DNA from: a virus
Virus genome (UHGV): UHGV-2195224
Length of the DNA stretch: 57,074 nt
Direction: 5' to 3' (one strand)
This document shows, piece by piece, positions 5,866-24,513 of the stretch. The first letter of the stretch is position 1, and every line of letters begins with the position of its first letter. The position numbers were made by a program, and so were the translations under genes. The notes below the pieces were generated by a model that ran no database searches, was not told the DNA's origin, and saw nothing but the letters and a program-made list of their open reading frames with translations.

Positions 5866-5870
5866 AAAGC

Positions 5871-5895
5871 AGCCCGCACTTATGCGGGCTAACCT
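5871..5895 (+). terminator. possible intrinsic terminator after the esterase gene
   Basis: hairpin agcccgcacttatgcgggct then weak T-tract. Confidence 0.35.
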
Positions 5896-7996: not shown

Positions 7997-8329
7997 TTAA
8001 TGTGGTGTGCTTCGTGACAATAAATTAATAACCAACACACCGGCACAAATCAACATCATGCCTATAATGGCTGGCAGGTCCAACCGTTGGCCGAAAAATC
8101 CCCATGATAGTATGCTAATCAGGACAATACCGACTCCTGACCAGATAGCATAAGCAATCCCTGTAGGTATATAAGCCAGCGTCTGAGCTAATAACCAGAA
8201 TGATGCACAATAACAAATAATTGTACCAACAGATGGCCATAACCGTGTAAAACCTTCTGAAAACTTCATTAAGGTTGTACCAATGACCTCTGCAAGTATT
8301 GCACCACCAAGATAAATATAAGGGTTCAT
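7997..8329 (-). CDS. emrE: SMR-family multidrug efflux transporter EmrE
   Basis: From internal ATG: MNPYIYLGGAILAEVIGTTLMKFSEGFTRLWPSVGTIICYCASFWLLAQTLAYIPTGIAYAIWSGVGIVLISILSWGFFGQRLDLPAIIGMMLICAGVLVINLLSRSTPH, 110 aa, four TM helices. Confidence 0.9.
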   Translation of the reverse strand: MNPYIYLGGAILAEVIGTTLMKFSEGFTRLWPSVGTIICYCASFWLLAQTLAYIPTGIAYAIWSGVGIVLISILSWGFFGQRLDLPAIIGMMLICAGVLVINLLSRSTPH

Positions 8330-8396
8330 AGCATATTCTTTCCTGTTCAAACTGGAGAGAATTGTACTACAGTTTGAACTCAACTCACCTGTTTCA

Positions 8397-8699
8397 TCAT
8401 TGTGTACCCATTGATGTTCTTTTATATACCCTCAATACCCGTTTCATCGCGGCACTCTGGCGACACTCCTTAAAAATCAAATTCGCGCTCACCTTTCCTT
8501 CCCGTTCTTCTCTGGTAGCGAACCGATAATACACCGTTCGCCAGACCTTACCATCAACGACCAGGATTCCTGCCCGCGCCATTTTAGCCGCAGCCTGATT
8601 TATGCTGGTTACGGTTGCGCCTGTTACCGCGGCAACGTCCTGCGCACAGAAGTTCTTATGAGTCCCCAGGTAATGAATAATTGCCTCTTTGCCCGTCAT
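8397..8699 (-). CDS. ren: Ren protein (lambda ren-like)
   Basis: ORF MTGKEAIIHYLGTHKNFCAQDVAAVTGATVTSINQAAAKMARAGILVVDGKVWRTVYYRFATREEREGK... Confidence 0.85.
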   Translation of the reverse strand: MTGKEAIIHYLGTHKNFCAQDVAAVTGATVTSINQAAAKMARAGILVVDGKVWRTVYYRFATREEREGKVSANLIFKECRQSAAMKRVLRVYKRTSMGTQ

Positions 8700-9397
8700 A
8701 CTCTTGCTCCTTTCAGCCCAAACTTAGCTTTGATTTCTGCGATCTTCGCCAGAGCCTGTGCACGATTTAGAGGTCTACCGCCCATGACAGGAATTTGTTT
8801 TACTGGTTCAGGTATAGCCTCACCACGGTTAATTCGCGCTGTCATACAGGTCAGTTCATCGGCAGCCTTGCGCCGTAATTCCGCGTCAGTCAGCGCATTG
8901 GCTCGCATGTTCTGATACAGGTTGGTAACCAACCAGTAATGCGCGTTTGATTTCCATGGATAAGACTCTGCATCCGGATAAAGGCCACGCTTCCGGCAAT
9001 ACTCGTAAACCATATCAACCAGCTCGCTGGCGTTTGGCAGCCCGGCGGTAACGGATGCTTCTTCCCGACACCAGGCAACAAACTGCCCGGGTGATGGCAG
9101 GAATGGTCGATTCTGCCGACGGGCTACGCGCATTCCTGCGTTAACCTGTTCCATTGTGGTGATCCCGTTTTCCCGGAAAGCCAGAACCCACTGGCGGCGG
9201 ATTTCGTTCAGTTCGTTCTGGTCCCGGTTAGCCAGACTCGCCGGGAAAGTTGCCAGTAACTGGCTGAACACACCGTTGATGATCTGCGCTACCTGCTGTA
9301 CCTGCGGCTTTTCGTCGTACTGTTCCGGCATGTTATTGGCGATCCGGCACATCTGCTCACGGTCAAAGTTAACCATCTGTGCGGCGATGTTTTTCAT
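8696..9397 (-). CDS. P: replication protein P (DnaB helicase loader, lambda P-like)
   Basis: 233-aa ORF MKNIAAQMVNFDREQMCRIANNMPEQYDEKPQVQQVAQIINGVFSQLLATFPASLANRDQNEL...; near-colinear with lambda P. Confidence 0.9.
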   Translation of the reverse strand: MKNIAAQMVNFDREQMCRIANNMPEQYDEKPQVQQVAQIINGVFSQLLATFPASLANRDQNELNEIRRQWVLAFRENGITTMEQVNAGMRVARRQNRPFLPSPGQFVAWCREEASVTAGLPNASELVDMVYEYCRKRGLYPDAESYPWKSNAHYWLVTNLYQNMRANALTDAELRRKAADELTCMTARINRGEAIPEPVKQIPVMGGRPLNRAQALAKIAEIKAKFGLKGARV

Positions 9398-10323
9398 AAA
9401 TCCACCCCATAAATCCAGTCAGTGTTTGTCAGGTCGAGTTTTGATTTTCCGGCTGTCACGCCAGCCTGTTGCTTGTTACGGTTGATTTCGAGTTGGGTCC
9501 ACTTGTCGCGGAGTTTGGCCGGACTTAGCACGTTACCGGACCAGAAGTTGTCCTGGCATGCCCAGCGGAACAGTACACACATGTCGCGGTGGTTACGTCC
9601 GTCACGTTCACGCATCAGGCGGATATCGTTAGCCCACCCTGCAAAATTCGGTTTTCTGGCTGATGGCGCGATGGTCTTCACCATGTCAAACATCCACTCT
9701 GCGGCGGTCAGGTCTTCTGCTGTCCCCCACTTGCTGCCGCTCTGAATTGCAGCATCCGGTTTCACCACAGGAAGATCGTTTTCTGGCTGGTCAGAGGATT
9801 CGCCAGAATTCTCGGACGAAAAAGGTTTTATATTGTCTTTTGTTAGTTTGTCTTTTGTGTTTACCTGATTCGGGTAAACGTCTTTACCTGATTTGGGTAA
9901 ACTTTTCTTACCTGATTCAGGTAAATTTACCTCTTTCAGGTAAACTTTATTTTTCTTACCTGATTCGGGTAATGTTGACCATTCACTGACCACATTATTA
10001 ATGCCGATATTCCGCCCGCTCTGAATAAAAATCCCACGCTTTATCAGAACACTTTTTGCAGCAGAACACTTGTGCGGCAATATCCCGGTCAACTCGGAAA
10101 GTTGCTCGTTGCTCACCCAATCCAGTTTTTTATTAAAGCCATATGTTTTGCGCATGACAGCCAGGAAGACCAGAAGCTGGTGCTGTGTTAATCCGGCCAG
10201 CATCACAGCTTCCAGCAACTCATTTGCAATGCGCGTATAACCATCATCGAGATCTGCCACGCGCGGCTCCTTTTGTGCCACATCCGGCACTGGAAAATTG
10301 AATATCTCAGCAGTGTTTGCCAT
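9394..10323 (-). CDS. O: replication initiator O (lambda O-like); start taken at MANTAEIFNF
   Basis: N-terminus aligns with lambda O (MTNTAKILNF...VADLDDGY...); contains the iteron array; stop overlaps P start; ORF track extends to 10413. Confidence 0.8.
   Translation of the reverse strand: MANTAEIFNFPVPDVAQKEPRVADLDDGYTRIANELLEAVMLAGLTQHQLLVFLAVMRKTYGFNKKLDWVSNEQLSELTGILPHKCSAAKSVLIKRGIFIQSGRNIGINNVVSEWSTLPESGKKNKVYLKEVNLPESGKKSLPKSGKDVYPNQVNTKDKLTKDNIKPFSSENSGESSDQPENDLPVVKPDAAIQSGSKWGTAEDLTAAEWMFDMVKTIAPSARKPNFAGWANDIRLMRERDGRNHRDMCVLFRWACQDNFWSGNVLSPAKLRDKWTQLEINRNKQQAGVTAGKSKLDLTNTDWIYGVDL
9860..9975. repeat. replication origin iterons (lambda ori-like) inside O
   Basis: Five tandem copies of an approximately 18-bp unit tacctgattcgggtaaa (variants ...tttgggtaaa, ...ttcaggtaaa, tacctctttcaggtaaa), each an internal inverted repeat. 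Confidence 0.7.
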
Positions 10324-10409
10324 AATTCCTCCCGCAATGAGTGTGTTACGATTTGCACCTGAAAGTCGGTTCTGTTCGCGCAGACCGGCTTTCGCCATTT
10401 CCGAACCTG

Positions 10410-10955
10410 TCATATTGCCCCCAGCATGGTGGTGACCATCGCCATCAGTGGACCAGCCAGATCCGGGTCCACACGAAACATCGACACAATGCCTTCACTC
10501 ATCTCCTTCAGTTTCTGGTGGCGTGGTGCGTTGAGAATGACAGCCTGTTTTGCCTCACTGAGTTCCTTTTCCATTTCAGCCAGCCGAGCCATGAAGCTAT
10601 CCTGCTCAACCAGGTGGCCGCGATATTCCAGCGGTAGTACCGCCAGAATTGCCGGGGTCAGTTCACGCACGTTATTTCGGTATTTTTCAGAATCGAATTT
10701 GTTATCGAGGAAGCGGAACAGCTTCTGGCGTGCACGGCTGACATCATCAGGGAAATCGATGGTGCCGCCGCCCTGCTCCCGATACTCATTCACAATGAGT
10801 GCGGCAACAACATCCTGATTATCTGCAGCCGACCAGGCGCGAACGGCATCACGGATTTTTTCGTGGCCTGGCGCCTGTTTTGTTTGAGAACGATTTATCA
10901 CCGCAGTCGGGCTAAATCCGCTAGTCTGTTGGTATGTAAGTGGTTGCATAGTCAT
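10410..10955 (-). CDS. phage regulatory protein in the cII position (CP76/CII-like family?), 181 aa
   Basis: ORF MTMQPLTYQQTSGFSPTAVINRSQTKQAPGHEKIRDAVRAW...; sits between cro and O on the early-right operon; family assignment from memory. Confidence 0.45.
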   Translation of the reverse strand: MTMQPLTYQQTSGFSPTAVINRSQTKQAPGHEKIRDAVRAWSAADNQDVVAALIVNEYREQGGGTIDFPDDVSRARQKLFRFLDNKFDSEKYRNNVRELTPAILAVLPLEYRGHLVEQDSFMARLAEMEKELSEAKQAVILNAPRHQKLKEMSEGIVSMFRVDPDLAGPLMAMVTTMLGAI

Positions 10956-10979
10956 TGCCTTATCAGTTAACGCCGCAGA

Positions 10980-11207
10980 TTAGGCGGCAGAATTACTCGC
11001 GTTAAACAATGGTGCGAGGTCGGGACGAATATCTGCTGGTTTAATCTTTCCACCAGTGGCTGAGACAATTTTCATTACATAGCGGGCATCAATTCCGCCA
11101 CCGTGTAGCCAACGCCAAACAGTGGGCTGGGCTACACCGCATAGATCTGCCAGTCGTTTTTGACTACCTGTAATACTGATTGCGAGTTGAATGGTTTGAT
11201 TTGTCAT
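10980..11207 (-). CDS. cro: Cro-like HTH repressor
   Basis: 75-aa ORF with HTH ...GSQKRLADLCGVAQPTVWRWLHGG...; divergent from cI across an operator-bearing gap. Confidence 0.7.
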   Translation of the reverse strand: MTNQTIQLAISITGSQKRLADLCGVAQPTVWRWLHGGGIDARYVMKIVSATGGKIKPADIRPDLAPLFNASNSAA

Positions 11208-11317
11208 TATTAATTCCTATTGGTATTACAATGAATAAATAATAGCAATGCGTATTAATCACAGCAATAGCAAAACGTGTTTTGACCATCAATACGCAAG
11301 CGTATAAATTAAAACTT
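11208..11317. promoter_or_regulatory. immunity switch region (OR operators, pR/pRM) between cro and cI
   Basis: 110-bp AT-rich divergent gap with repeated motifs taatagcaatgcgtatta / cagcaatagcaa / atcaatacgcaagcgtat; same CAATAGCAAT family recurs at 13055-13150. Confidence 0.5.
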
Positions 11318-12010
11318 ATGAAAAAAGAAACTCTTGCTGATCGCTTAAACCTAGCGATGGAACAATCTGGAATGTCTCAAGGCGCTCTTGCAAAGGCGTC
11401 TGGCGTAGCTCAACCCACAATCTGGAGACTGACAAGCGGCAACGCGCGCGGCTCAACAAAAATTGTTGAAATAGCTAATGCATTGGGTGTTCGAACAGAG
11501 TGGCTCTCATCAGGCATAGGCCCGATGAGAAATGACGGTCAACAATTAGGGAAGCCTACTGCCAACCATCCCAAATACTTCAAGATTGACGTTCTTGATA
11601 TAGAAGTGAGTGCCGGGCCGGGAGTCATCAACCGTGAGTTTGTAGAAGTTCTACGCTCGGTTGAGTACTCGTTTGACGATGCTCGTCACATGTTCGATGG
11701 TAGGAAGGCAGAAAATATCCGCATCATTAACGTACGCGGTGACAGCATGTCAGGAACGATTGAACCTGGTGATCTTCTGTTCGTTGATATCACGGTTAAA
11801 TCTTTCGACGGTGATGGCATCTATGCGTTTCTGTACGACGACACCGCCCATGTAAAGCGCCTGCAAATGATGAAGGATAAGCTGCTGGTTATCTCTGATA
11901 ACAAGAGCTACTCACCGTGGGACCCGATCGAGAAAGACGAGATGAACCGGGTGTTCATCTTCGGTAAGGTTATTGGGAGCATGCCCCAGACGTACAGGAA
12001 ACATGGATAA
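11318..12010 (+). CDS. cI: CI repressor (HTH plus LexA/S24-like autocleavage domain)
   Basis: From internal ATG: MKKETLADRLNLAMEQSGMSQGALAKASGVAQPTIWRL...; C-terminal S24 peptidase domain with GDSM serine motif; no SD before ATG, consistent with leaderless pRM mRNA. Confidence 0.85.
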   Translation: MKKETLADRLNLAMEQSGMSQGALAKASGVAQPTIWRLTSGNARGSTKIVEIANALGVRTEWLSSGIGPMRNDGQQLGKPTANHPKYFKIDVLDIEVSAGPGVINREFVEVLRSVEYSFDDARHMFDGRKAENIRIINVRGDSMSGTIEPGDLLFVDITVKSFDGDGIYAFLYDDTAHVKRLQMMKDKLLVISDNKSYSPWDPIEKDEMNRVFIFGKVIGSMPQTYRKHG

Positions 12011-12076
12011 TCAGTACTGTGCTGATGAGTCGTTTAGGGGATAGTAAATTTAATTAGAATTAGACGAGAGCGATTT

Positions 12077-12940
12077 ATGGATTGTGACGCTTTACAGGAT
12101 ATAAAAATCTCTCTTAGGTATGACGGAAAAGATGCTTTAAATCATGAAATAGATTTGAACTGCCTAGGAGAATCCCTAAAGGGTTTTTCTAAAGTTCTCT
12201 CAACAGCAGCTTCTTTCTCTGTTACACAAAAATATAGTAAATACATTAATTATCAGGAAGTTAAGGTTTACGCACGCGAAGCAAAAGCTAACTGCTTTAC
12301 TCTTGAAGCAGTTCTTAACTTCGCCACTCAGAACCAGTTGTTCTCGGGGATCGCCGCAACTATACTTGGCGCAATACTACAATATATTTTTGCGAGAAAT
12401 TCTAACAAGAAAGATGAAATGAAAGCTTTGCAGCAGTCACTTGAAAAGGCCATAGAGGCACTAGGAAACAAGGATGCTGGAACCATTGATAAGTTGATCT
12501 CTTTGATTGACCGAATGGCTGTAGAGCTTCGCCCCTCTGTAAGGCAGGCAGTATCACCTATTGGTAATACTTGCGATCAGATAAGTGTTGCAACAAATGT
12601 TGACGGCTGCCTTCTAAAAGTTAACGAGAGAGATAAAGCTGAAATTGATAGGCTTGATGATGATGAAGTTCTCGGTCTTCGTGAGTATCGTGCTTTTCTT
12701 ACAGAATTTGATGCACAAAATATGACAGCTAAAATAATTTTAGATGGTGATGACTCAAAAAAGAGAATCACTGCTGAAATTAGCGATCCAGCTGCAGGAA
12801 AGAAGAATAACCCGTATATTAGAGCTCTTAGTGCATATATATCAACCAAAGGTGATCCATCTGCAGTATTCACTATAACCGCAAAGGCTACTGTTAAAAA
12901 AGGCCAGATAAACAGGTTATTTATTGTAGATGCGAAATGA
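12077..12940 (+). CDS. uncharacterized 287-aa protein in the rexAB/sieB slot downstream of cI
   Basis: [39 protein letters not shown]...; one hydrophobic segment [19 protein letters not shown]; AT-rich; co-directional with cI and followed by a terminator. Confidence 0.6.
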
Positions 12941-12944
12941 TTTC

Positions 12945-12971
12945 CCCGGCCGTCGTGCCGGGTTTTCTTTT
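12945..12971 (+). terminator. intrinsic terminator ending the cI-cargo transcript
   Basis: stem cccggc/gccggg with 6-nt loop followed by TTTTCTTTT. Confidence 0.6.
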
Positions 12972-13054
12972 GCCTCCCCTCATCACATAAACCGTTCAAA
13001 AAACCACCACGACCTCGCTTCAGTTATCGCTATGCGATGCAAGTCACAAAATTA

Positions 13055-13150
13055 ATTCTTTTTGCTATCAAACAGTTAATATCAAAACACATCAATCAAT
13101 AGCAATAAGTATTGATATAGTCAATAGCAATAGCTATTATCACCATGTCG
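13055..13150. promoter_or_regulatory. putative OL/pL operator-promoter region
   Basis: palindromic motifs atcaatagcaataagtattgat and aatagctatt sharing the CAATAGCAAT core with the cro-cI gap. Confidence 0.4.
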
Positions 13151-13417
13151 CAACAACACAACGATACGGCAATCACCTGATTCACCGTTGCGATGACCGC
13201 TTAGATCCGCAGCTTGAATTTCAGCAGGCTCCGGGGAGTGCGAGGGGTGAAGCGGACGCGTGAACGTCGGTGTGACCAGCTGAAATCAACTCAACACCTC
13301 ATACCTCAGTCGCTTCAACGAGGCGGCTTAGTTATGACAACCGGCGGCCATCCACCGCCTGAATACGCGCAGAAGTCTCTATATGTTCAGCAGCCCAGCT
13401 TACGGGCAGGAGTTTTT

Positions 13418-13624
13418 ATGGTTCATCAACATTACGGAACGCAGACCGTTAATCGAGGTGCGGTCATGCCAGGAATGCTGGTCAAACACAAAGATGGTAC
13501 CTGGACTGCATCAGCTAATTTACGCGGACGGCTTTATCTGCATCGCGGCATCGAGCGCACTTATACCCGTGATTTGCTCGTGGAAGTTTTTCTCGACGGA
13601 CGCGGTAACGGCCTCAATCACTAA
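13418..13624 (+). CDS. small early-left-operon protein (68 aa), function unknown (Kil/cIII position)
   Basis: ATG at 13418 preceded by strong SD caggag; [44 protein letters not shown]...; the longer track ORF from 13214 begins at TTG. Confidence 0.35.
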
Positions 13625-13699
13625 TCCCCTTTCCTGTTTTCCTAATCAGCCGGGCATTTCGCGGGCGATATTTTCACAGCCATTTTCAGGAGTTCAGCC

Positions 13700-13996
13700 A
13701 TGAACGCTTATTACATTCAGGATCGTCTTGAGGCTCAGAGCTGGGCACGTCACTACCAGCAGATCGCCCGTGAAGAGAAAGAGGCAGAACTGGCAGACGA
13801 CATGGAAAAGGGTCTGTCCCAGCACCTGTTTGAATCACTCTGCATCGATCATTTGCAACGCCACGGGGCCAGCAAAAAAGCCATTACCCGTGCGTTTGAT
13901 GACGATGTTGAGTTTCAGGAGCGCATGGCAGAACACATCCGGTACATGGTTGAAACCATTGCTCACCATCAGGTTGATATTGATTCAGAGGTATAA
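13700..13996 (+). CDS. gam: Gam (RecBCD inhibitor), short GamS form
   Basis: 98-aa [63 protein letters not shown]...; in-frame stop upstream excludes the long form. Confidence 0.9.
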
Positions 13997-14001
13997 AACG
14001 G

Positions 14002-14787
14002 ATGAGTACAGCACTCGCAACGCTGGCAGGGAAGCTGGCTGAACGTGTCGGCATGGATTCTGTCGACCCACAGGAACTGATCACCACTCTTCGCCAGACA
14101 GCATTTAAAGGCGATGCCAGCGATGCGCAGTTCATCGCATTGTTGATCGTCGCCAACCAGTACGGCCTTAATCCGTGGACGAAAGAAATTTACGCCTTCC
14201 CTGATAAGCAGAACGGCATCGTTCCGGTGGTGGGCGTTGATGGCTGGTCCCGCATCATCAATGAAAACCAGCAGTTTGATGGCATGGACTTTGAGCAGGA
14301 CAATGAATCCTGTACATGCCGGATTTACCGCAAGGACCGTAATCATCCGATCTGCGTTACCGAGTGGATGGATGAATGCCGCCGCGAACCATTCAAAACC
14401 CGCGAAGGCAGAGAAATCACCGGCCCGTGGCAGTCGCATCCCAAACGGATGTTACGGCATAAAGCCATGATTCAGTGTGCCCGTCTCGCCTTCGGATTTG
14501 CTGGTATCTATGACAAGGATGAAGCCGAGCGCATTGTCGAAAATACTGCATACACTGCAGAACGTCAGCCAGAACGCGACATCACTCCGGTTAACGATGA
14601 AACCATGCAGGAGATTAACACTCTGCTGATCGCCCTGGATAAAACATGGGATGACGACTTATTGCCGCTCTGTTCCCAGATATTTCGCCGCGACATTCGC
14701 GCATCGTCAGAACTGACACAGGCCGAAGCAGTGAAAGCTCTTGGATTCCTGAAACAGAAAGCCACTGAGCAGAAGGCGGCAGCATGA
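14002..14787 (+). CDS. bet: Bet / Red-beta single-strand annealing recombinase
   Basis: 261-aa [69 protein letters not shown]... Confidence 0.9.
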
Positions 14788-15464
14788 TACCGGACATTAT
14801 CCTGCAGCGTACCGGGATCGACGTGAGAGCTGTCGAACAGGGGGATGATGCATGGCACAAATTACGGCTCGGCGTCATCACCGCTTCAGAAGTTCACAAC
14901 GTGATAGCAAAGCCCCGCTCAGGAAAGAAGTGGCCTGACATGAAAATGTCCTACTTCCACACCCTGCTGGCTGAGGTTTGCACCGGTGTGGCTCCGGAAG
15001 TTAATGCTAAGGCGCTGGCCTGGGGAAAACAGTACGAGAACGACGCCAGAACCCTGTTTGAATTCACTTCCGGCGTGAATGTTACTGAATCCCCGATCAT
15101 CTATCGCGACGAAAGTATGCGCACCGCCTGCTCTCCCGATGGTTTATGCAGTGACGGCAATGGCCTTGAGCTGAAATGCCCGTTTACCTCCCGGGATTTC
15201 ATGAAGTTCCGGCTCGGTGGTTTCGAGGCCATAAAGTCGGCTTACATGGCCCAGGTGCAGTACAGCATGTGGGTGACGCGAAAAGATGCCTGGTACTTTG
15301 CCAACTATGACCCGCGTATGAAGCGTGAAGGACTGCATTATGTCGTGGTTGAGCGGGATGAAAAGTACATGGCGAGTTTTGACGAGATGGTGCCGGAGTT
15401 CATCGAAAAAATGGACGAGGCACTGGCTGAAATTGGTTTTGTATTTGGGGAGCAATGGCGATGA
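14784..15464 (+). CDS. exo: lambda exonuclease (Exo / Red-alpha)
   Basis: 226-aa [68 protein letters not shown]...; overlaps bet stop. Confidence 0.9.
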
Positions 15465-15643
15465 CGCATCCTCACGATAATATCCGGGTAGGCGCGATCA
15501 CTTTCGTCTACTCCGTTACAAAGCGAGGCTGGGTATTTCCCGGCCTTTCTGTTATCCAAAATCCACTGAAAGCCCAGCGGCTGGCTGAGGAGATAAATAA
15601 TAAACGAGGGGCTGTATGCACAAAGCATCTCCCGTTGAGTTAA
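15455..15643 (+). CDS. small lambdoid early protein (lambda orf61-like)
   Basis: 62-aa [34 protein letters not shown]...; immediately after exo. Confidence 0.45.
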
Positions 15644-15807
15644 GAACGAGTATCGAGATGGCACATAGCCTCGCTCAAATTGGAGTCAGGTTTGTGCCAA
15701 TACCAGTAGAAACAGACGAAGAATTTCATACGTTAGCCACATCCCTTTCACAAAAGCTGGAAATGATGGTGGCGAAAGCAGAAGCAGATGAGAGAGACCA
15801 GGTATGA
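15616..15807 (+). CDS. small lambdoid early protein (lambda orf63-like)
   Basis: 63-aa [40 protein letters not shown]... Confidence 0.45.
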   Translation: MHKASPVELRTSIEMAHSLAQIGVRFVPIPVETDEEFHTLATSLSQKLEMMVAKAEADERDQV

Positions 15808-15883
15808 CAACCACTGAATGCATTTTTCTGGCAGCGGGCTTCATATTCTGTGTGCTTATGCTTGCCGACATGGGACTTGTTCA

Positions 15884-16099
15884 ATGACACCTCAGCAAGA
15901 AAACGCCCTTCGCAGTATTGCCCGTCAGGCTAATTATGAAATCAAAAAAGCCAGACAGCAGTTTCCGGATAAAAACGTCGATGACATTTGCCGTAGCGTA
16001 CTGAAGAAGCACCGCGAAACGGTAACGCTGATGGGATTCACACCGACTCATTTAAGCCTGGCGATCGGCATGTTAAACGGCGTCTTTAAGGAACGGTGA
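15884..16099 (+). CDS. small hypothetical early protein
   Basis: internal ATG MTPQQENALRSIARQANYEIKKARQQFPDKNVDDICRSVLKKHRETV... Confidence 0.4.
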   Translation: MTPQQENALRSIARQANYEIKKARQQFPDKNVDDICRSVLKKHRETVTLMGFTPTHLSLAIGMLNGVFKER

Positions 16100-16121
16100 A
16101 CATGAAAAACAAAATCATCAT

Positions 16122-16148
16122 GGAGCTACAGGCTCCTTTTTTATTATT
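16122..16148 (+). terminator. possible intrinsic terminator
   Basis: hairpin ggagctacaggctcc followed by TTTTTTATTATT. Confidence 0.45.
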
Positions 16149-16197
16149 CGCATTCACCCTCAAGCGTATTAACCAACAATTCAGGGATTAATGAAAG

Positions 16198-16416
16198 ATG
16201 GCAGACATCATTGATTCAGCATCAGAAATTGAAGAATTACAGCGCAACACAGCAATAAAAATGCGCCGCCTGAACCACCAGGCTATATCTGCCACTCATT
16301 GTTGTGAGTGTGGCGATCCGATAGATGAACGAAGACGCCTGGCCGTTCAGGGTTGTCGGACTTGTGCAAGTTGCCAGGAGGAGATCGAACTTAAGAACAA
16401 ACAATGGGGACTGTGA
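16198..16416 (+). CDS. TraR/DksA-family C4 zinc-finger protein
   Basis: 72-aa ORF with CCECGDPIDERRRLAVQGCRTCASC (two CxxC pairs). Confidence 0.7.
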   Translation: MADIIDSASEIEELQRNTAIKMRRLNHQAISATHCCECGDPIDERRRLAVQGCRTCASCQEEIELKNKQWGL

Positions 16417-16463
16417 TGGCCTCAAAGCAGCAAATTTCAACATCGTCCAACTGAGGTGTAAAA

Positions 16464-16703
16464 ATGTTCAGAATCATTTTTCCTAACACCTGGTACGTCG
16501 ACCACCACGGCACTCCCTGCAAAATCCTGCGTTCTACCCACAACAAAGTTCACTACATCCGAAAAGGCAGAACATGTATCGCCAGCATGTTCCGCTTTAA
16601 TCATGACTTTGAACCTGTGAATAAAGCTGATGCAGATCGGATAGCAGAAGAGATCGAAACGGCAGAACACATTAAGAAGTTACGTGCCATACGCAGGAAA
16701 TAG
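16464..16703 (+). CDS. hypothetical small protein
   Basis: 79-aa ORF with SD gaggtg; MFRIIFPNTWYVDHHGTPCKILRSTHNKVHYIRKG... Confidence 0.4.
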   Translation: MFRIIFPNTWYVDHHGTPCKILRSTHNKVHYIRKGRTCIASMFRFNHDFEPVNKADADRIAEEIETAEHIKKLRAIRRK

Positions 16704-16842
16704 AAAAATTGATAAATTCAATACTGCATTTCTCAGCATTAAATTTATCTCTATGACCAGTCAAGAGATGTACCTGCCATGAGCTTAATATCATGTCAGA
16801 TATATCGGTCACAAACTCCCTCAGCAGCTAAGAGGAGGACAA

Positions 16843-17079
16843 ATGTCTCGACTAATCACTTTACAGGACTGGGCTAAAGAAGAATTTGGGGACTTAGCAC
16901 CAAGTGAGCGAGTTCTGAAAAAATACGCGCAAGGGAAAATGATGGCCCCACCCGCTATAAAAGTTGGTCGCTACTGGATGATTGACCGAAATTCCCGTTT
17001 TGTAGGAACGCTTGCAGAACCGCAACTCCCAATAAACGCAAACCCAAAACTCCAACGGATAATCGCTGATGGCTGCTAG
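16843..17079 (+). CDS. xis: excisionase-like protein
   Basis: 78-aa ORF with strong SD aggagg, directly upstream of and overlapping int; homologous to 55721-55966. Confidence 0.6.
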   Translation: MSRLITLQDWAKEEFGDLAPSERVLKKYAQGKMMAPPAIKVGRYWMIDRNSRFVGTLAEPQLPINANPKLQRIIADGC

Positions 17080-18211
17080 ACCCCGATCTCACAAAATCTC
17101 TATACCCAATTTATATTGCAAATTAGATAAGCGAACCGGAAAGGTATATTGGCAATACAAACATCCACTATCCGGTCGTTTTCATAGCTTAGGAACTGAT
17201 GAGAATGAAGCAAAACAAGTTGCTACTGAAGCAAATATCATTATTGCTGAACAACGTACCCGACAAATATTAAGCGTCAATGAGCGTCTGGAAAGAATGA
17301 AAGGCAGGCGCTCAGACATTACGGTGACAGAATGGCTTGATAAATATATTTCTATCCAGGAGGACAGGCTGCAACATAATGAACTAAGACCCAACTCCTA
17401 TCGGCAAAAAGGCAAACCCATTCGTCTTTTCCGTGAGCATTGTGGAATGCAACACCTCAAGGATATTACCGCACTTGATATTGCCGAAATAATTGATGCT
17501 GTAAAGGCTGAAGGTCATAACAGGATGGCGCAAGTCGTGAGAATGGTGTTAATCGACGTCTTCAAAGAAGCACAACACGCAGGACATGTTCCGCCAGGAT
17601 TTAACCCAGCGCAGGCAACAAAACAACCGCGAAATCGAGTAAACCGCCAAAGATTATCACTGCCCGAATGGCAGGCAATATTTGACAGCGTAAGCAGACG
17701 GCAGCCCTATTTAAAATGTGGGATGCTACTTGCTCTTGTCACTGGACAACGTTTAGGCGATATCTGCAATTTGAAATTCTCTGATATCTGGGACGACATG
17801 TTGCACATTACTCAGGAAAAAACCGGTTCAAAACTTGCTATTCCGCTTAACCTGAAATGCGATGCTCTGAATATTACCCTTCGTGAAGTTATATCTCAGT
17901 GCAGGGATGCTGTTGTTAGTAAATATCTGGTCCATTACCGTCACACAACCTCTCAAGCAAACAGAGGAGACCAGGTTTCTGCGAATACTCTGACAACGGC
18001 TTTTAAAAAGGCCAGGGAAAAATGTGGCATAAAATGGGAGCAAGGAACTGCGCCCACATTTCATGAGCAGCGATCTCTGTCAGAACGGTTATATCGGGAA
18101 CAGGGTCTGGATACGCAAAAGTTGTTAGGCCATAAATCCAGAAAAATGACCGACCGATACAATGATGATCGTGGTAAAGACTGGATTATCGTAGATATCA
18201 AAACAGCATAG
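17069..18211 (+). CDS. int: tyrosine integrase (lambda Int family), icd-targeting type
   Basis: 380-aa ORF; catalytic-domain motifs ...LVTGQRLGDI..., ...HEQRSL..., ...LLGHKSRKMTDRY...; adjacent to the icd-derived att core; paralogous to 55947-57074. Confidence 0.9.
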   Translation: MAARPRSHKISIPNLYCKLDKRTGKVYWQYKHPLSGRFHSLGTDENEAKQVATEANIIIAEQRTRQILSVNERLERMKGRRSDITVTEWLDKYISIQEDRLQHNELRPNSYRQKGKPIRLFREHCGMQHLKDITALDIAEIIDAVKAEGHNRMAQVVRMVLIDVFKEAQHAGHVPPGFNPAQATKQPRNRVNRQRLSLPEWQAIFDSVSRRQPYLKCGMLLALVTGQRLGDICNLKFSDIWDDMLHITQEKTGSKLAIPLNLKCDALNITLREVISQCRDAVVSKYLVHYRHTTSQANRGDQVSANTLTTAFKKAREKCGIKWEQGTAPTFHEQRSLSERLYREQGLDTQKLLGHKSRKMTDRYNDDRGKDWIIVDIKTA

Positions 18212-18220
18212 AAAATAGCC

Positions 18221-18258
18221 AGTTTTGGGGAAGGGTTTTGGGGAAAGTTTTGGGGAAG
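18221..18258. repeat. three tandem direct repeats (a/g)gttttggggaa(g/a), candidate Int arm-type sites
   Basis: agttttggggaag / ggttttggggaaa / gttttggggaag directly after the int stop. Confidence 0.4.
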
Positions 18259-18279
18259 ATTTTACATCATCATAAAACA

Positions 18280-18305
18280 ACGGGCGTGTTATACGCCCGT
18301 TTCAA
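18280..18305. terminator. bidirectional hairpin between int and the icd fragment
   Basis: stem acgggcgt/acgcccgt with gttat loop, flanked by AT-rich tracts. Confidence 0.45.
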
Positions 18306-18324
18306 TATTTAACACATGTAGAGA

Positions 18325-18489
18325 TTACATGTTCTTGATGATCGCGTCACCAAACTCTGAACATTTCAGCAGTTTAGCGCCTTCCATCAGACGTTCGAAG
18401 TCATAGGTTACGGTCTTCGCGTTGATTGCGCCTTCCATACCTTTAACAATCAGGTCTGCGGCTTCAGTCCAGCCCATATGGCGCAGCAG
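18325..18489 (-). pseudogene. icd: isocitrate dehydrogenase (icd) 3-prime-terminal fragment = prophage att core
   Basis: Minus-strand translation [54 protein letters not shown] then stop; an in-frame TAA sits immediately upstream so it is not fused to an icd body. Confidence 0.8.
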
Positions 18490-18933
18490 TAGTTAGATGG
18501 TTCATATACAACCGCATGATAAATAAAAATAATCCTATAATTTTATTGTAAATCAACTGGCTTTTATCTTTCCCCTAACCTATTGATTATCAATGTATGT
18601 TTTTTGGTTTTGATAACCGTTTTAGAGGGCAAAAACAAGTGCCTGTACCTATCAGCCCCTTCACGGCAAAGGGATTTTAAATCATGCGTGTTTTCACAAA
18701 CTATCAATGGCTTAACTAAATTTTTCGCCAATAACGTACGCTGTGAGTGAGAGGTGGATATGAAGTTACACACTCCCGGAAAATAAAGAATTGAGCGTTA
18801 TCTCATGCTATTAATGAAAAGTGTTTGCTTAATAGATTACATATAACTATGATTCAAGCCCAATTAAAGTCGTGTGTCTTTGGCTTAAATTGGCAAACAA
18901 ACAATCAAGTCAAGAATATAAAGGAACTATTCA

Positions 18934-19902
18934 ATGAATAAGAATTATAAAACGTTTAAACTTGAACTATGGGAGAAGTTTAAGCATCAATGTGCTTACT
19001 GTGGCACTAAACTTTATGAACCATTGATGGCGGATGTTGATCGTTTTTTCCCAAAATCAAAGTATACTGACTTCCAAGATGCTACAGACAACCTGCTCAT
19101 CGCTTGTAAGGCATGTAGCATGATTAAAAAAGATCAGTTTCCTCTCGATGAAAATGGCAAACCATTACTTCTAAATCCTTTAAATGAAAGTTTTTCAGAA
19201 CATATAAAACAAAATAAAAATGGATATTTAGAAGGTTTAACTGAGCGAGGACATGCGACTATAGATATATTACAGTTGAATAGACCTTCATTAATTGAAC
19301 AGCGCATTCTAGATGTTATTGATATGCAGTACTCTGATGATCGAACGCTATCTGAACGAGATGTCTATATGACATTCCAAAATAGTATGCAGAACGCCAT
19401 AAAACTAAATGATGCTCAGTTAAAAATTGATAGCACTTTACAAATACAAATGTCGTATATGCTATATGCCAATACAATAACTTCCTTGGAAACATATTTA
19501 TGTGACAGATTTATTTCCCTAATTCATGGTAGCCAAACTAATTTGAGAAATTTTGTTGAAACCTTCAAAGATTACAATACAGAAAAATTCTTACTTTCTG
19601 AATTATTTATAAGGCATGAACAAATAGAGTCTCAAGCGATAGAGTCTATGAAGAGTGTTCTTTATCATAATCTGCCAAAAGTAAGTGGCATGTATCGAGA
19701 TACCTTTGGTATTAAATTCCCTGTTTTCACAGAAGTTTATAAAAGCGTGTTAATTAGGCATGACTTAGTTCATCGAGCAGGTAAAACAAAAAATGGTAAT
19801 TTTCATAAGTTAGATTCAGAGTCAGTTAAAGATGTTATCAAAAAATGCTGTGACTTGGTTGAACAACTAGAAAAAGAGCTTAAAGATTGTGCATCATTCT
19901 AG
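18934..19902 (+). CDS. uncharacterized protein: N-terminal HNH-like Cys4 zinc-finger domain plus C-terminal helical domain with R-x4-H (HEPN-like) motif
   Basis: 322-aa AT-rich ORF; CAYCG...DVDRFFPKSKY...DNLLIACKACSMIKKD (Arg where the catalytic His is expected); C-terminal ...SVLIRHDLVHRAGK...; SD aagga. Confidence 0.55.
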   Translation: MNKNYKTFKLELWEKFKHQCAYCGTKLYEPLMADVDRFFPKSKYTDFQDATDNLLIACKACSMIKKDQFPLDENGKPLLLNPLNESFSEHIKQNKNGYLEGLTERGHATIDILQLNRPSLIEQRILDVIDMQYSDDRTLSERDVYMTFQNSMQNAIKLNDAQLKIDSTLQIQMSYMLYANTITSLETYLCDRFISLIHGSQTNLRNFVETFKDYNTEKFLLSELFIRHEQIESQAIESMKSVLYHNLPKVSGMYRDTFGIKFPVFTEVYKSVLIRHDLVHRAGKTKNGNFHKLDSESVKDVIKKCCDLVEQLEKELKDCASF

Positions 19903-20095
19903 GTAATTGCCACCAAATCGAAGGTGATCGCGCTTGCGGTCACCAAAAGTAATAAACTATTCATTCCCATTCGATCATCTGAACCAACACAATTTTATTT
20001 AATAAAGTTGACCTACTTCATTATTTGATACCCATCCAATGTGCGCAAGGGCTGCTTCTGGCACATGGTTACCCTTGATGAGAAGGTAGATCACC

Positions 20096-20219
20096 GCTAT
20101 GGGGTGTCGGGGGCGGAGGTTCAAATCCTCTCGTGCTGACCAAAAATCCTCGAAGAACCAGCCTGTTACGGCTGGTTTTTTTTGCCTGTTTTCTGAACGG
20201 GGAAGCAATGGGGAAATTA
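20096..20219 (+). repeat. direct repeat copy 1: 3-prime 45 nt of a tRNA-Pro gene (to ACCA at about 20142) plus its terminator and flank
   Basis: ctatggggtgtcgggggcggaGGTTCAAATCCtctcgtgctgACCA then aaccagcctgttacggctggttttttt; no 5-prime tRNA half upstream. Confidence 0.7.
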
Positions 20220-20405
20220 GCTTACGATTGACCCCACTGCGAAAAGCGCAGATTTTTATCAATGGACGTACATAGGGTAGATAAGGCACAATACTGCTTC
20301 AATGTCGTCTGATGGTATTGTAATACTAATTACATCAGATGATTTAACTAGATTAGTTCTTTATAGAAATCATTCTTGAATATTAATTGGCTGACTGAGG
20401 TTTTT

Positions 20406-21191
20406 ATGGATGAAAAATACAGAAGATTTGTTGATGAGGTTGACTTTTCAAGACAATTATTAGGCATAGGGCTCACTTCCCTAAGGAAAGCAAATTTTGC
20501 AAGTAGAGGATTGTATTTTCAAGCATTATCCGGCATCAGTTTAGGATTAGAAAGGCTTATGAAACTTTGCCTTATGCTTGATGATTATAATAAAAATGGA
20601 AAATATACATCACGCAAAAAATTAAGAGATTACGGTCATAACTTAAGCAAGTTATTCAACCTAGTCATTGAGAGAGTTGATTCTCCCTCTGGCTTAAATG
20701 AAATTCACTACAGAGTGATGGAGTTGTTAACTAATTTTGCAAATTCATCAAGATATAGTAATATTGATTTCATTACTAATGACAACGACAATGATCCCAT
20801 GAAGCAATGGTATAATGAAATCGATAAGAGCATTTACGATAAAATATTAACAAAAAGACAAAAAAATATAATTGATAAAAAATGCGAGCAATACCGAAGC
20901 TATGGTGAAACACTGCCATGCTATGTGCTTGGATATTATGATGAAGACAGAAACCATATAAACTCTGCAGGGGATTTAAATTATTTACTTAAAAGAAGTG
21001 AAATGCTTGCTGGTTATCGCACTTTATTAGTTATTCATATCATAGAATGCATCTATAACATATTAGACTCAATGACAGTTCAAGCAAAAGATAATCACTT
21101 CCACCATCTTGAATTAGGTCGTTTTTTTGCAACCATCATTTATGGCTCTGATAGAGACAAAATCAATAGAAAAAATTTTATCCGTATGTGA
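20406..21191 (+). CDS. uncharacterized AT-rich protein (about 261 aa from ATG at 20406) bracketed by tRNA-Pro-fragment repeats
   Basis: SD gagg 6 nt upstream; MDEKYRRFVDEVDFSRQLLGIGLTSLRKANFASRGLYFQALSGISLGLERLMKL...; no recognised catalytic motif. Confidence 0.55.
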   Translation: MDEKYRRFVDEVDFSRQLLGIGLTSLRKANFASRGLYFQALSGISLGLERLMKLCLMLDDYNKNGKYTSRKKLRDYGHNLSKLFNLVIERVDSPSGLNEIHYRVMELLTNFANSSRYSNIDFITNDNDNDPMKQWYNEIDKSIYDKILTKRQKNIIDKKCEQYRSYGETLPCYVLGYYDEDRNHINSAGDLNYLLKRSEMLAGYRTLLVIHIIECIYNILDSMTVQAKDNHFHHLELGRFFATIIYGSDRDKINRKNFIRM

Positions 21192-21267
21192 GACTACGAA
21201 GCGACCGACGAATGATGCTATCAACTTACTGTAGACGCATATAGGCCATCAGAATATTAGCACGACA

Positions 21268-21389
21268 CTATGGGGTGTCGGGGGGCGGAGGTTCAAATCC
21301 TCTCGTGCCGACCAAAAATCCTCGAAGAACCAGCCTGTTACGGCTGGTTTTTTTGCCTGTTTTCTGAACGGGGAAGCAATGGGGAATTA
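21268..21389 (+). repeat. direct repeat copy 2: tRNA-Pro 3-prime fragment (to ACCA at about 21314) plus terminator and flank
   Basis: Near-identical to 20096-20219 with a few substitutions/indels (e.g. ctgacca vs ccgacca). Confidence 0.7.
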
Positions 21390-21588
21390 CAGGGGAAAAA
21401 CCCCGTCAAATGTTGCCCCCGTATCGCTAGCACACAATGATTAAGTATCTTTTTCACTTTCGGAATTCATCAATTCACAAAACCATCATTCCGATTTACC
21501 TTACATGCTCCTTTTAAATCTTTAACGGTGTGCACCACTTTTTCTAACTGCCCTATACTTTCAGTCTGACATACGGCTGGAGGTTTCT

Positions 21589-22257
21589 ATGTGTGGACGC
21601 TTTTCACAGTCAATGACCCGTGAAGATTATCTTGCCCTTCTCGCTGATGAATCAGAACGCGATATTCCATACGATCCAGAACCCATCGGAAGATTCAACG
21701 TAGCGCCAGGAACAAAAGTTCTGCTTCTGAGCGAACGTGATGAGCAGTTGCATCTTGATCCAGTTATCTGGGGATACGCCCCCGGTTGGTGGGATAAACC
21801 GCCGCTCATTAATGCACGGTCTGAAACTGCTGCCACCAGCAGAATGTTTAAACCACTCTGGCAGCATGGCCGCGCAATTTGCTTTGCTGATGGATGGTAT
21901 GAGTGGAAAAAGGAAGGCGACCAAAAACAACCCTACTTTATTCACCGGGCAGACGGTCAGCCGATTTTTATGGCGGCGATCGGCAGCACACCATTCGAAC
22001 GTGGAGATGAAGCAGAAGGTTTCCTGATAGTTACAGCTGCAGCTGACAAAGGACTGGTTGATATTCACGACAGACGACCACTGGTACTGCTACCGGAAGC
22101 CGCGCGTGAATGGATGAGGCAGGATGTTGGAGGGAAAGAAGCAGCGGAAATTGCAGCCGACGGTGTTGTACCGGCTGATAAATTTATATGGCACGCCGTA
22201 ACGCGTGCCGTCGGGAATGTGAAAAATCAGGGCGCCGAACTAATAACGCCAATATGA
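21589..22257 (+). CDS. SOS-response-associated peptidase (SRAP / YedK-like abasic-site processing protein)
   Basis: 222-aa ORF starting MCGRFSQS (catalytic Cys2) with SD ggagg; occupies the slot where a Pin/Gin invertase gene would be expected. Confidence 0.7.
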   Translation: MCGRFSQSMTREDYLALLADESERDIPYDPEPIGRFNVAPGTKVLLLSERDEQLHLDPVIWGYAPGWWDKPPLINARSETAATSRMFKPLWQHGRAICFADGWYEWKKEGDQKQPYFIHRADGQPIFMAAIGSTPFERGDEAEGFLIVTAAADKGLVDIHDRRPLVLLPEAAREWMRQDVGGKEAAEIAADGVVPADKFIWHAVTRAVGNVKNQGAELITPI

Positions 22258-22451: not shown

Positions 22452-22934
22452 TTGCACATATCAGCAGTGAGCCATCGCAGTTTGGGAGAAGGTGCTCCAG
22501 CTATTGGCGTTCCGTTCTTCTGGGCGTCCGCTGCAATGCCAAATACTGTAATCGACAGCTGGTCCAGTATGGTGTTTTTGAAGTTCAACGGGGCGAAATT
22601 TTCTGCCACTGATTACCCTGTGCTGGCGAAAGTGTTTCCGGCGTTGGCATTACCTGACGCACGCGGTGATTTCATTCGTGTCTGGGATGACGGGCGAGGT
22701 GCAGATGGTGGTCGCGAATTATTAAGCTGGCAGGCAGCTACAAACTTTTCTCAGTTTGCCGGGAATATAGGCGAAGGTGCGGGACACGCAATTAACTTTC
22801 ATGATGGCATCGCCGGAAATCAGCCAGGATTTTCACGATTTAATTTCACCAGTAACTCTGTGGGTGATGGTGTGAATTTTGTTGCTGTCAGACCGCGAAA
22901 TATTGCATTTAACTTTCTGGTGAGGGCTAAATAA
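22452..22934 (+). CDS. tail-fibre alternative C-terminal segment (silent inverted cassette)
   Basis: ...GEGAPAIGVPFFWASAAMPNTVIDSWSSMVFLKFNGAKFSATDYPVLAKVFPALALPDARGDFIRVWDDGRG...; begins at the inverted-repeat crossover half-site, no constant N-terminal part. Confidence 0.7.
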   Translation: MHISAVSHRSLGEGAPAIGVPFFWASAAMPNTVIDSWSSMVFLKFNGAKFSATDYPVLAKVFPALALPDARGDFIRVWDDGRGADGGRELLSWQAATNFSQFAGNIGEGAGHAINFHDGIAGNQPGFSRFNFTSNSVGDGVNFVAVRPRNIAFNFLVRAK

Positions 22935-23527
22935 TGAAACCTGTTTTTGATGAAAATGGGCTGGCTACAGTGCCGGGCGATATGCGTTGTTTTTATTATG
23001 ATGCTGAAACATCTGAGTATACGGGCTGGTCTGATGAATATATTAATACTGGCGTAAGTATGCCCGCCTGTTCAACTGGTATTGACCCGGGCGAAAACAT
23101 TCTGGGAAGAGTGACGGTATTTACAGGTAAGGGATGGAGCCATGAGGAAGACCATCGCAATGAGACTGTTTACTCAATCGAAAATGGTGCAGCTGTTACA
23201 GTGGATTATATCGGTGCCATCAAAGACGGTTATGTCACGCTTTCACCGTTAACGCCATACGATAAATGGGATGGTGAGAAATGGGTGACAGACACTGAGG
23301 CACAACACAGTGCCGCAGTAGACGCGGCAGAAGCACAGCGCCAGTCACTGATTGATGCAGCAATGGCTTCCATTAGTCTGATTCAGCTGAAATTACAGGC
23401 CGGACGGAAACTGACTCAGGCAGAAACAACCCGACTTAACGCCGTGCTGGATTACATTGACGCGGTGACGGCAACAGATACCAGCACCGCGCCGGATGTC
23501 ATCTGGCCTGAACTGCCGGAGGCGTAG
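22934..23527 (+). CDS. tail fibre assembly protein (Tfa; partner of the silent fibre cassette)
   Basis: 197-aa ORF MKPVFDENGLATVPGDMRCFYYDAETSEYTGWSDEYINTG... Confidence 0.8.
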   Translation: MKPVFDENGLATVPGDMRCFYYDAETSEYTGWSDEYINTGVSMPACSTGIDPGENILGRVTVFTGKGWSHEEDHRNETVYSIENGAAVTVDYIGAIKDGYVTLSPLTPYDKWDGEKWVTDTEAQHSAAVDAAEAQRQSLIDAAMASISLIQLKLQAGRKLTQAETTRLNAVLDYIDAVTATDTSTAPDVIWPELPEA

Positions 23528-23927
23528 GCCATTCAATATCGGGTGCTGTTGACGTATCAACACGCATCAGCAGCACACGGTATTTCTTCCATTGGGTGAG
23601 AGTTGTAGCTTCTTCATCAGTTGCGATATCAGCATCAACAGCATCCTGACGCCAGGATATTTCACTGTCAGCCTTTTCCCGTAATTGGGATTTTTTAACT
23701 TCAGCAATAGCTATTAATTCCTTTTTGGTCGGCTGAGGAATATCTATCAGTGCTGGTTTTCCATTCAGTGTTCCAATCTGTTTTCCTGGTGGAATATCCA
23801 TAAATAACTTTTTATGTTCTTCCTCACTGACTATTACACCATCATCAGGCCACAGACCTGATGCCTCAAATTTTTCTTTCTCCGATATGGGGAAAAAGCC
23901 ATTTGCTTTAGCGCTCCATACGTACAT
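23499..23927 (-). CDS. tail fibre assembly protein (Tfa; partner of the expressed fibre)
   Basis: 142-aa ORF MYVWSAKANGFFPISEKEKFEASGLWPDDGVIVSEEEHKKLF...; C-termini of the two convergent Tfa genes share ...RVDTSTAPDIEWP... Confidence 0.8.
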   Translation of the reverse strand: MYVWSAKANGFFPISEKEKFEASGLWPDDGVIVSEEEHKKLFMDIPPGKQIGTLNGKPALIDIPQPTKKELIAIAEVKKSQLREKADSEISWRQDAVDADIATDEEATTLTQWKKYRVLLMRVDTSTAPDIEWPTPPAVQAR

Positions 23928-23928
23928 A

Positions 23929-24513
23929 TCAATACCCCACCGCTATAATGTCCACATTAAATCCCCCGGGACCTGCCTGCCAGATGCTGGCCCCTGTTAA
24001 TGATTTTGTTTGATGAACAACCGCCACATTTGCTGGTGATTGTGTTTCAGTTGTTACAGTACCGATATCATTCCAGTTAATTGAGATGGAATAGTTCGTT
24101 GTTGTAAACGACCGGGGGAAAGTTATATGTCTTACATTAGTGCCAATAGGAAATCCAAGATAAACACGCTGAATTATCATTCCTCCAGGTAACATAACCC
24201 AGTTAGCACCTTCTCCCAAACCAAGGTTTTCGAGAGCCGTTTTCACCGTGCCATCCGATTTGATATCGCCAAACGGATTCTTGCGGCTTAACAGCAGCGC
24301 ACGAAGCGCTGTAAGCAGCTGGTCATGCCGCCCCTTCTCCAGGCTGGCACCGGATGCCTCCACAACACTGCAAAGTTCCTCCTGCAACATGTCAAAGTAG
24401 TCATCATCCAGATCGGTGGCAGGTGTGCCGGTCTGGGGGTTACCACGGGTAAAACCGTTCTTACCCGCGCCGAACTTATCCTTCTGCGCGGTTTTCGTGT
24501 CTATACGATGCAT
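23929..24513 (-). CDS. tail fibre protein (Mu S / e14 StfP-like), expressed orientation
   Basis: 194-aa [50 protein letters not shown]...; contains the 26-bp crossover site at the constant/variable junction. Confidence 0.8.

Follow-up and report, generated by a model that had tools for sequence, protein, structure and literature searches.

The window, by which we mean the whole 57,074-nt stretch of DNA that was analysed, has two prophages integrated in tandem at icd. The first, a lambdoid prophage, is represented by its early and lysis regions (bases 1 to ∼18250), with the integrase gene last, as in SE15, where the lambdoid prophage adjoins icd. This right arm (window 1–18250) carries a phage porin gene (1170–2312), Q, rusA, O/P, bet/exo, xis and int (17069–18211), and a large serine recombinase gene of the ybcK type lies at 6215–7741. 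The second prophage is a full-length relative of the e14 element of Escherichia coli K-12. The features of its att-proximal part are collected in Table 1. An icd pseudogene is annotated at the corresponding place in AH01, and the pseudo-copy in the window shows where the e14-family prophage ends in a duplicated attachment site. Read from this att end, the order is icd′, an HNH nuclease gene, tRNA-Pro′, an orphan ORF, a second tRNA-Pro′, an SRAP gene and a humD remnant, beyond which come an invertible segment, the constant part of the tail fibre and ymfQ. This order, from icd′ through to ymfQ, puts the SRAP gene among the cargo of the prophage.

Table 1. Features around the SRAP gene at the icd′ end of the e14-family prophage (window positions)
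Feature	Position	Strand	Basis or remarks
icd 3′-end pseudo-copy (icdC-like)	18272..18499	-	94.7% identical to K-12 icdC, 87% to the icd 3′ end
Cargo HNH endonuclease, 322 aa, ∼32% GC	18934..19902	+	PADLOC PtuB, E=1e-23; PHROG HNH families
tRNA-Pro(proL)-derived pseudogene, copy 1, with terminator	20059..20219	+	Repeat proper 20097–20215
Orphan ORF, 271 aa from TTG (261 aa as annotated in relatives), ∼30–32% GC	20376..21191	+	Between the tRNA-Pro′ copies
tRNA-Pro(proL)-derived pseudogene, copy 2, with terminator hairpin	21229..21389	+	Repeat 21268–21386
Conserved upstream block, TATACT (21554–21559) and SD GGAGG (21579–21583)	21530..21588	+	Nine-locus alignment
SRAP / YedK-subfamily gene, 222 aa	21589..22257	+	Pfam, NCBIfam, PDB alignment, dN/dS
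humD-family (UmuD′-like) 3′ remnant, 74 C-terminal codons	22258..22480	-	Convergent with SRAP, abutting
Deletion junction 22480/22481 and truncated outer pix site	22480..22496	.	Inner half-site (G)TTTGGGAGAA alone left
Invertible tail-fibre segment, presumably now locked	22481..24222	.	Collinear with CDF6, inverted relative to AH01; Caudo_TAP Pfam matches
Intact inner pix site TTCTCCCAAACC-AA-GGTTTTCGAGAG	24211..24236	.	Within the expressed tail-fibre gene 23929–24513 (-)

The earlier note had seen here a 222-residue ORF beginning MCGRF, with the Cys2 signature of SRAP proteins and a strong Shine–Dalgarno sequence, placed between the second tRNA-Pro repeat and a degenerate crossover site, and the ORF list, the profile searches and the feature map agree with it on each of these points. 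The ORF is intact, with the sequence GGAGG 5 nt ahead of its ATG, and encodes a full-length SRAP protein. Residues 1–211 align with positions 1–214 of the 214-position Pfam profile PF02586 (E=6.8e-51), with a score of 173 bits as compared with the curated cut-off of 27.1. The model of the YedK subfamily (NCBIfam PRK09951 / NF007413) gives 464 bits, the cut-off being 349, and PHROG 1599, the phage SRAP family, also matches (E=3e-88). The alignment with E. coli YedK (PDB 6kcq/2icu/6nua) is gapless, with 194 of 222 residues identical (87.4%), and in it C2, N75, R77, E105, H160 and R162 of YedK are all kept, as is the invariant cysteine after the initiator methionine, which is the N-terminal nucleophile. 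In the assembly collection, 296 blocks list an identical protein.

Int/xis, ymfK–M, the baseplate/ymfQ region and the tail-fibre segment are 85–98% identical in nucleotide sequence to K-12 e14 (blastn). The marks of the e14 family that were found are integration in icd, a duplicated icd 3′ end, e14-type int/xis, ymfK–M, the baseplate genes and ymfQ; Pin together with two complete pix sites, a further mark of the family, is missing from the window. K-12 e14, with the order icd ... ymfQ-stfP-tfaP-tfaE-stfE′-pinE-mcrA-icdC, is cryptic, whereas its relative in the window is full length. The two share the integration site, the icd′ duplication, a nuclease gene at the att-proximal end and a tail-fibre inversion module. 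They differ in that pin is deleted from the window, and in that the HNH gene, the orphan ORF, tRNA-Pro′, the SRAP gene and the humD remnant are found there instead of mcrA. The prophage around the SRAP gene is thus of the e14 family and occupies icd, which agrees with the proposal that the gene is prophage cargo.

Within this cargo, the HNH gene occupies the slot that mcrA has in K-12 e14. Its product combines an N-terminal HNH domain of the PtuB/retron type with an uncharacterised C-terminal domain (phrog_29321), and is likely to be a stand-alone defence nuclease. Searches of Pfam, NCBIfam, PADLOC, PHROGs, the PDB and the phage collection with the product of the orphan ORF gave zero matches. 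The orphan ORF is bracketed by the 119-nt direct repeats, as if it had been swapped in by recombination between tRNA-Pro′ copies.

The ORF could in principle be the host's own chromosomal yedK, and hence backbone rather than cargo, and its 87% amino acid identity to YedK at equal length would be in keeping with this. We nevertheless regard it as extremely improbable, since the context of the gene refutes it. Chromosomal E. coli yedK is 77–78% identical to the window gene at the nucleotide level, in an alignment confined to the gene itself, and with pN 0.078 and pS 0.75 the synonymous sites are saturated. When the yedK neighbourhood was compared, no flanks were common to the two loci; the synteny of the E. 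coli yedK locus is missing around the window gene, which sits instead between the icd′ att duplication and the prophage tail genes. The allele, or a 93% variant of it, is present in only 25 of 5,426 complete E. coli genomes (megablast) and so is missing from >99% of them, and AH01 contains both copies, the SRAP gene matching two places in that genome, namely the prophage copy and one other that is presumably its own chromosomal yedK. The identity and shared synteny with yedK by which the earlier note would have recognised host backbone were therefore not found. Judged from sequence and gene context, the SRAP gene of the window is a second yedK-type copy, that is, a prophage-borne YedK paralogue and not host yedK.

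The proteins nearest to it are those of the Citrobacter freundii complex, with amino acid identities of 96% in C. braakii, 95% in C. murliniae and 94% in C. werkmanii. Relative to its closest relatives (the Citrobacter and AR_0128 copies) the gene shows a dN/dS of 0.055–0.126, and values this low indicate that it has evolved under strong purifying selection. The 96% copy of C. braakii lies in the chromosomal backbone, at tonB-yciA, and no tRNA-Pro′ accompanies it. Among possible donors, E. coli yedK or a duplicated host gene was ruled out by the saturated synonymous divergence, and Atlantibacter was ruled out as a direct donor by an amino acid identity of 80%, as compared with 94–96% for Citrobacter.

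Six complete genomes share this prophage end at 99.6–99.9% identity and have more genes there than the window. In these relatives what comes after SRAP is, in order, a convergent member of the S24 family, a small pseudogene, dinI, the gene for a serine recombinase of the Pin type and the invertible segment. The S24 gene is a humD, of the family of HumD, the UmuD′-like protein of phage P1. In the near-identical prophages of AH01 and CDF6 pin lies ∼1.1 kb downstream of the SRAP stop codon. The window is collinear with CDF6 apart from 1,518 missing bp (L086 7382–8899), so that dinI, pin and the 5′ portion of humD are gone. The deleted stretch also takes in the two LexA-like boxes that immediately precede dinI in AH01 (L001 13843–13882). 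No Pin or DinI homologue was detected by tblastn anywhere in the 57-kb window. What is left of humD matches positions 57–129 of the 129-position NCBIfam HumD model NF051876 (E=3e-33), and its PHROG match is UmuD-like. The full-length relative in L097 encodes 141 aa and begins MGFPSPA, like cleaved UmuD′.

The humD genes of the near-identical prophages contain a (CCAG)n tract, which has been deleted from the window. Among L001 (∼13480–13520), L086, L091, L095, L096 and L097 the values of n are 9, 9, 9, 10, 11 and 12, and only n=11 (L097) gives the 141-aa reading frame, so that humD is frameshifted in most of the relatives. Such variation has the look of phase variation of a UmuD′ analogue by strand slippage, which would be unusual for E. 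coli.

The sequence across the deletion junction reads ...GAGCCATCGCAG joined to TTTGGGAGAAGG..., with 1 nt of microhomology. In the outer pix site, TTTTCATAAACG-TT-GGTTTGGGAGAA, the Pin cleavage position is the central TT, and the right-hand end of the deletion falls 1–2 nt inside it. The identical junction was found in six of the ten retrieved assemblies that encode an identical SRAP protein, and among these are some that lack the tandem lambdoid prophage as well as some that have it. SNPs that are common to the deletion-type loci and absent from the undeleted forms point to a single ancestral deletion, and for the same reason recurrent independent deletions are unsupported. A clean Pin-catalysed deletion, using a quasi-pix site in humD, was considered and rejected: ∼4 of 12 positions per half-site agree with pix, and the observed product differs by 1 nt from the recombinant that such an event should give. 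As this poor likeness on the humD side makes a clean site-specific event unlikely, illegitimate joining near the cleavage point is preferred to clean Pin catalysis. That the junction is so close to the cleavage position hints at an abortive Pin break that was then repaired. The recombinase may thus, by an abortive cut at pix followed by microhomology joining, have deleted its own gene and frozen the host range. A 160-aa ORF at 22452–22934 (+) is a fusion artefact: its TTG start lies within the humD remnant but on the other strand, and it reads across the deletion point and on into the silent cassette of the tail-fibre C-terminus.

The SRAP gene now adjoins the invertible segment, where pinE is found in K-12 e14, and the earlier note, which saw the gene where the invertase should be, offered as one of two possibilities that it was cargo that had replaced the invertase. 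Insertion of an SRAP cassette that displaced the invertase is, however, very improbable. SRAP and pin are present together in near-identical prophages, the window is CDF6 less 1,518 bp, with the humD remnant left behind, and the deletion-type loci form a derived clade as judged by their shared SNPs. It follows that SRAP did not replace the invertase, and that its position against the non-inverting tail-fibre segment is due to the 1,518-bp deletion beside it. The cargo half of the proposal stands; the replacement half does not.

The segment itself holds a silent tail-fibre C-terminal part, up to 22934 (+), and two tfa genes (22934–23527, + and 23499–23927, −). The truncated pix site is the inverted partner of the intact 12-2-12 site. 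As in other systems of the Din family (Pin/pix, Gin/gix, Cin/cix, Hin/hix), the site has 26 bp in a 12-2-12 arrangement with a central AA/TT, and the two sites are inverted and bound a segment with the tail-fibre C-terminus and tfa. Unlike those systems, the window has neither a recombinase gene nor the outer half of one site. With a lone inner half-site and a missing recombinase the tail-fibre switch should be locked, and the 194-aa gp53-like fibre (23929–24513) should be the one expressed in the locked state.

The 119-nt direct repeats upstream of the SRAP gene are 99% identical to one another. Each contains the 3′ half of tRNA-Pro(GGG)/proL plus a terminator, both copies keep a degenerate 5′ half, and the repeat is ∼88% identical to genuine E. 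coli proL with its terminator. No functional tRNA was called at the repeats by ARAGORN (0) or by Rfam (0 at E≤1), and they are therefore pseudogenes. In copy 2 the tRNA 3′ end is at 21316, and the terminator scan places a hairpin at 21324–21353. tRNA-Pro′-SRAP is a conserved unit, in which 272 nt separate the 3′ end of the tRNA from the ATG. It recurs, at 93% nucleotide identity, in an e14-like remnant of E. coli AR_0128, where PGAP annotates a tRNA-Pro; in a C. werkmanii island (L005 5680–8486), where a convergent umuC-umuD pair comes next; and at the right end of Gifsy-2 (L085 1507–2347), after stf-tfa-sseI, in one continuous 75% alignment. The C. werkmanii island lies downstream of purB and consists of an SRAP fragment, an OLD-family nuclease gene, tRNA-Pro′, SRAP and umuC-umuD. 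In Gifsy-2 the unit is decayed and unannotated.

Five Atlantibacter genomes have a genuine tRNA-Pro(GGG) in a conserved yejK-yejM-proL position, and in three of them (L071, L079, L081; 5835–6675) an SRAP gene follows 89 nt after the tRNA. The genes downstream of SRAP in L071 and L079 are non-phage, and the layout of terminator and TATACT in Atlantibacter resembles that of the window. The tRNA-Pro′-SRAP unit resembles this chromosomal proL-yedK junction, which is still present in Atlantibacter. The remnants of the tRNA 5′ half in the phage copies make capture of a whole proL-yedK junction more likely than a vestigial attP. The second proposal of the earlier note, that a host gene was captured at a recombination junction, does not hold for this host and this junction; in an older sense it plausibly does, given the Atlantibacter junction and the occurrence of the unit in several phages. 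An ancient capture of the chromosomal proL-yedK junction by a temperate phage and, separately, loss of the invertase by abortive Pin cleavage make up a pair of proposals that, taken jointly, we consider possible but doubtful. The captured unit may since have circulated, with a promoter of its own, among islands and unrelated phages (an e14-like myovirus and the lambdoid Gifsy-2), and it may typically have docked beside genes of the Pol V type, either umuDC or a phase-variable humD with dinI.

The block upstream of the gene, comprising TATACT and the Shine–Dalgarno sequence, is kept in the e14-like copies, the C. werkmanii island, the C. braakii chromosomal copy, Gifsy-2, PHB10 and an Enterobacter copy. 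We take it as a candidate for SRAP's own promoter, which would be independent of DNA damage (non-LexA, constitutive). A simple sigma-70 scan upstream of SRAP called no promoter, and the −35 element of the proposed promoter is weak, so that an own promoter is something that we infer. A hairpin over the Shine–Dalgarno sequence, flagged by the terminator scan, was discounted, as it folds no better than shuffled sequences (z=−0.44). The check for an upstream LexA box that the earlier note advised was run and found none. The consensus 20-mer, at ≤3 mismatches, is absent from the window, and a 16-mer at ≤1 mismatch gave nothing above background. Allowing ≤2 mismatches, the 400 nt upstream contain two 16-mer matches, where ∼1.9 are expected, and neither has an intact CTG...CAG. 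A conserved CTG-N11-CAG around TATACT was rejected as a LexA box because its spacing is wrong. The CTGT-N8-ACAG type of box that marks the SOS (LexA) regulon is thus not seen at the SRAP gene.

Taking these observations together, we consider it very probable that the gene is a functional SRAP of the YedK type, carried as cargo of an e14-family prophage near its icd′ end, beside a 1,518-bp deletion. The identity of the gene, its conserved catalytic residues, the purifying selection on it, the prophage context and the deletion map are all observed. In YedK, the amine and thiol of Cys2 attack the aldehyde of a ring-opened abasic (AP) site in single-stranded DNA and form a thiazolidine crosslink, Glu105 and His160 catalysing ring opening and Schiff-base formation; the crosslink protects the AP site and is slowly reversible (PMC9436759; PMC6821365). 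The roles of Asn75, Glu105 and His160 in the active site have been described (PMC9436759). By homology, the window protein would lose Met1, and its exposed Cys2 would attack the ring-opened AP-site aldehyde in single-stranded DNA. The resulting thiazolidine DNA–protein crosslink, catalysed by Glu105/His160, would shield the AP site from strand breakage and error-prone bypass. Such biochemical activity is what homology would predict, and it may be of some benefit to the lysogen. As to how the gene came to its present surroundings, the travelling unit would consist of the decayed tRNA-Pro (proL), the terminator, the conserved promoter-like block and SRAP. In the intact relatives this unit would form part of a DNA-damage-tolerance cassette, made up of SRAP, the convergent humD (a pre-cleaved UmuD′ analogue) and dinI, with pin following. 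In the lineage of the window, humD lost its 5′ part, and dinI (together with its candidate LexA boxes) and pin were lost altogether, through a single 1,518-bp deletion; the position of the junction suggests that Pin cleavage may have played a role in it. With the partner genes of the cassette gone from the window, any joint function would have been lost.

Two other views of its function need to be weighed against this. The gene may be an intact but idle relic, either unexpressed or redundant with host yedK now that its humD and dinI partners are gone. Neither a consensus promoter nor a LexA box was found upstream, the partners are deleted, humD is frameshifted in most relatives, and the copy in Gifsy-2 is a truncated remnant, all of which would fit. 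The strong purifying selection along the lineage speaks against this, and the conserved upstream block with its strong Shine–Dalgarno sequence, together with the persistence of the identical protein in many assemblies, likewise makes this view unlikely. Alternatively, SRAP may serve the phage itself, as a damage sensor for induction or as a shield of single-stranded DNA against AP sites made by glycosylases. SRAP does recur in unrelated temperate phages (PHROG 1599), a DNA-damage sensor that feeds induction has been proposed by Aravind et al. 2013 (PMC3765255), and glycosylase-based defence makes AP sites in phage DNA (PMC11078745). Nevertheless, deletion of host yedK left Brig1 immunity unchanged (PMC11078745), the gene lies in the cargo region and not in a regulatory or replication module, and in sequence the protein is almost the same as the housekeeping proteins of YedK type in Citrobacter. 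PADLOC gives no match for SRAP, by which membership of a defence system was also rejected. We therefore hold a phage-specific role to be quite improbable, and retain the reading of a functional YedK-type cargo gene.

E. coli YedK (2ICU, 6NUA, 6KBS, 6KCQ) is the bacterial prototype of SRAP/HMCES, and the window protein is of equal length and belongs to the same subfamily, PRK09951. The two differ in location, yedK lying in the yedF-yedL locus and the window gene among prophage cargo, and by 23% in nucleotide sequence. Like the window gene, YoqW of SPbeta (Bacillus subtilis) and the SRAP genes of PHB10 (Escherichia) and Gifsy-2 (Salmonella) are carried as lysogen cargo; their products are 27–86% identical to the window protein, and they are often found near umuDC-type genes, tail-fibre genes or att ends. 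Gifsy-2 shares the whole unit of tRNA-Pro′, 272 nt and SRAP, although its SRAP copy is truncated, whereas PHB10 has the order int-SRAP...umuDC-tail fibre without the tRNA-Pro′ part. The neighbours of SRAP are humD and dinI in the intact e14-like relatives, and umuDC in Citrobacter and PHB10. As regards HumD of phage P1 and UmuD′, the remnant in the window matches the C-terminal 73 positions of the HumD-family model, and the full-length relative, like cleaved UmuD′, has its start at the GFPSPA motif. In comparison with P1 HumD the window retains the 3′ ∼40% alone, while the relatives carry a (CCAG)9–12 tract.

SRAP genes beside UmuCD and in temperate phages were reported by Aravind et al. 2013 (PMC3765255), and their presence on prophages (SPbeta YoqW, Gifsy-2, PHB10) and next to umuDC is thus already described. 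The flagged SRAP gene is real but ordinary cargo. What is mildly new is a deletion mapped at one end to the pix cleavage point, the tRNA-Pro′-SRAP unit in unrelated phages, and the variable (CCAG)n tract of humD. The practical value of the analysis lies in annotation, in that the gene should be labelled as a prophage-borne YedK paralogue, and neither as a host gene nor as a replacement of the invertase. The locus also adds one more well-mapped case of SRAP and Pol V-type genes on temperate phages, and illustrates that a small deletion can at the same time strip a cassette of its SOS-linked partners and lock the tail-fibre switch of the phage. If the junction capture, the (CCAG)n variation in humD and the deletion at the cleavage point are all true, they would be of modest help in explaining the transfer of damage-tolerance genes between phages and chromosomes.
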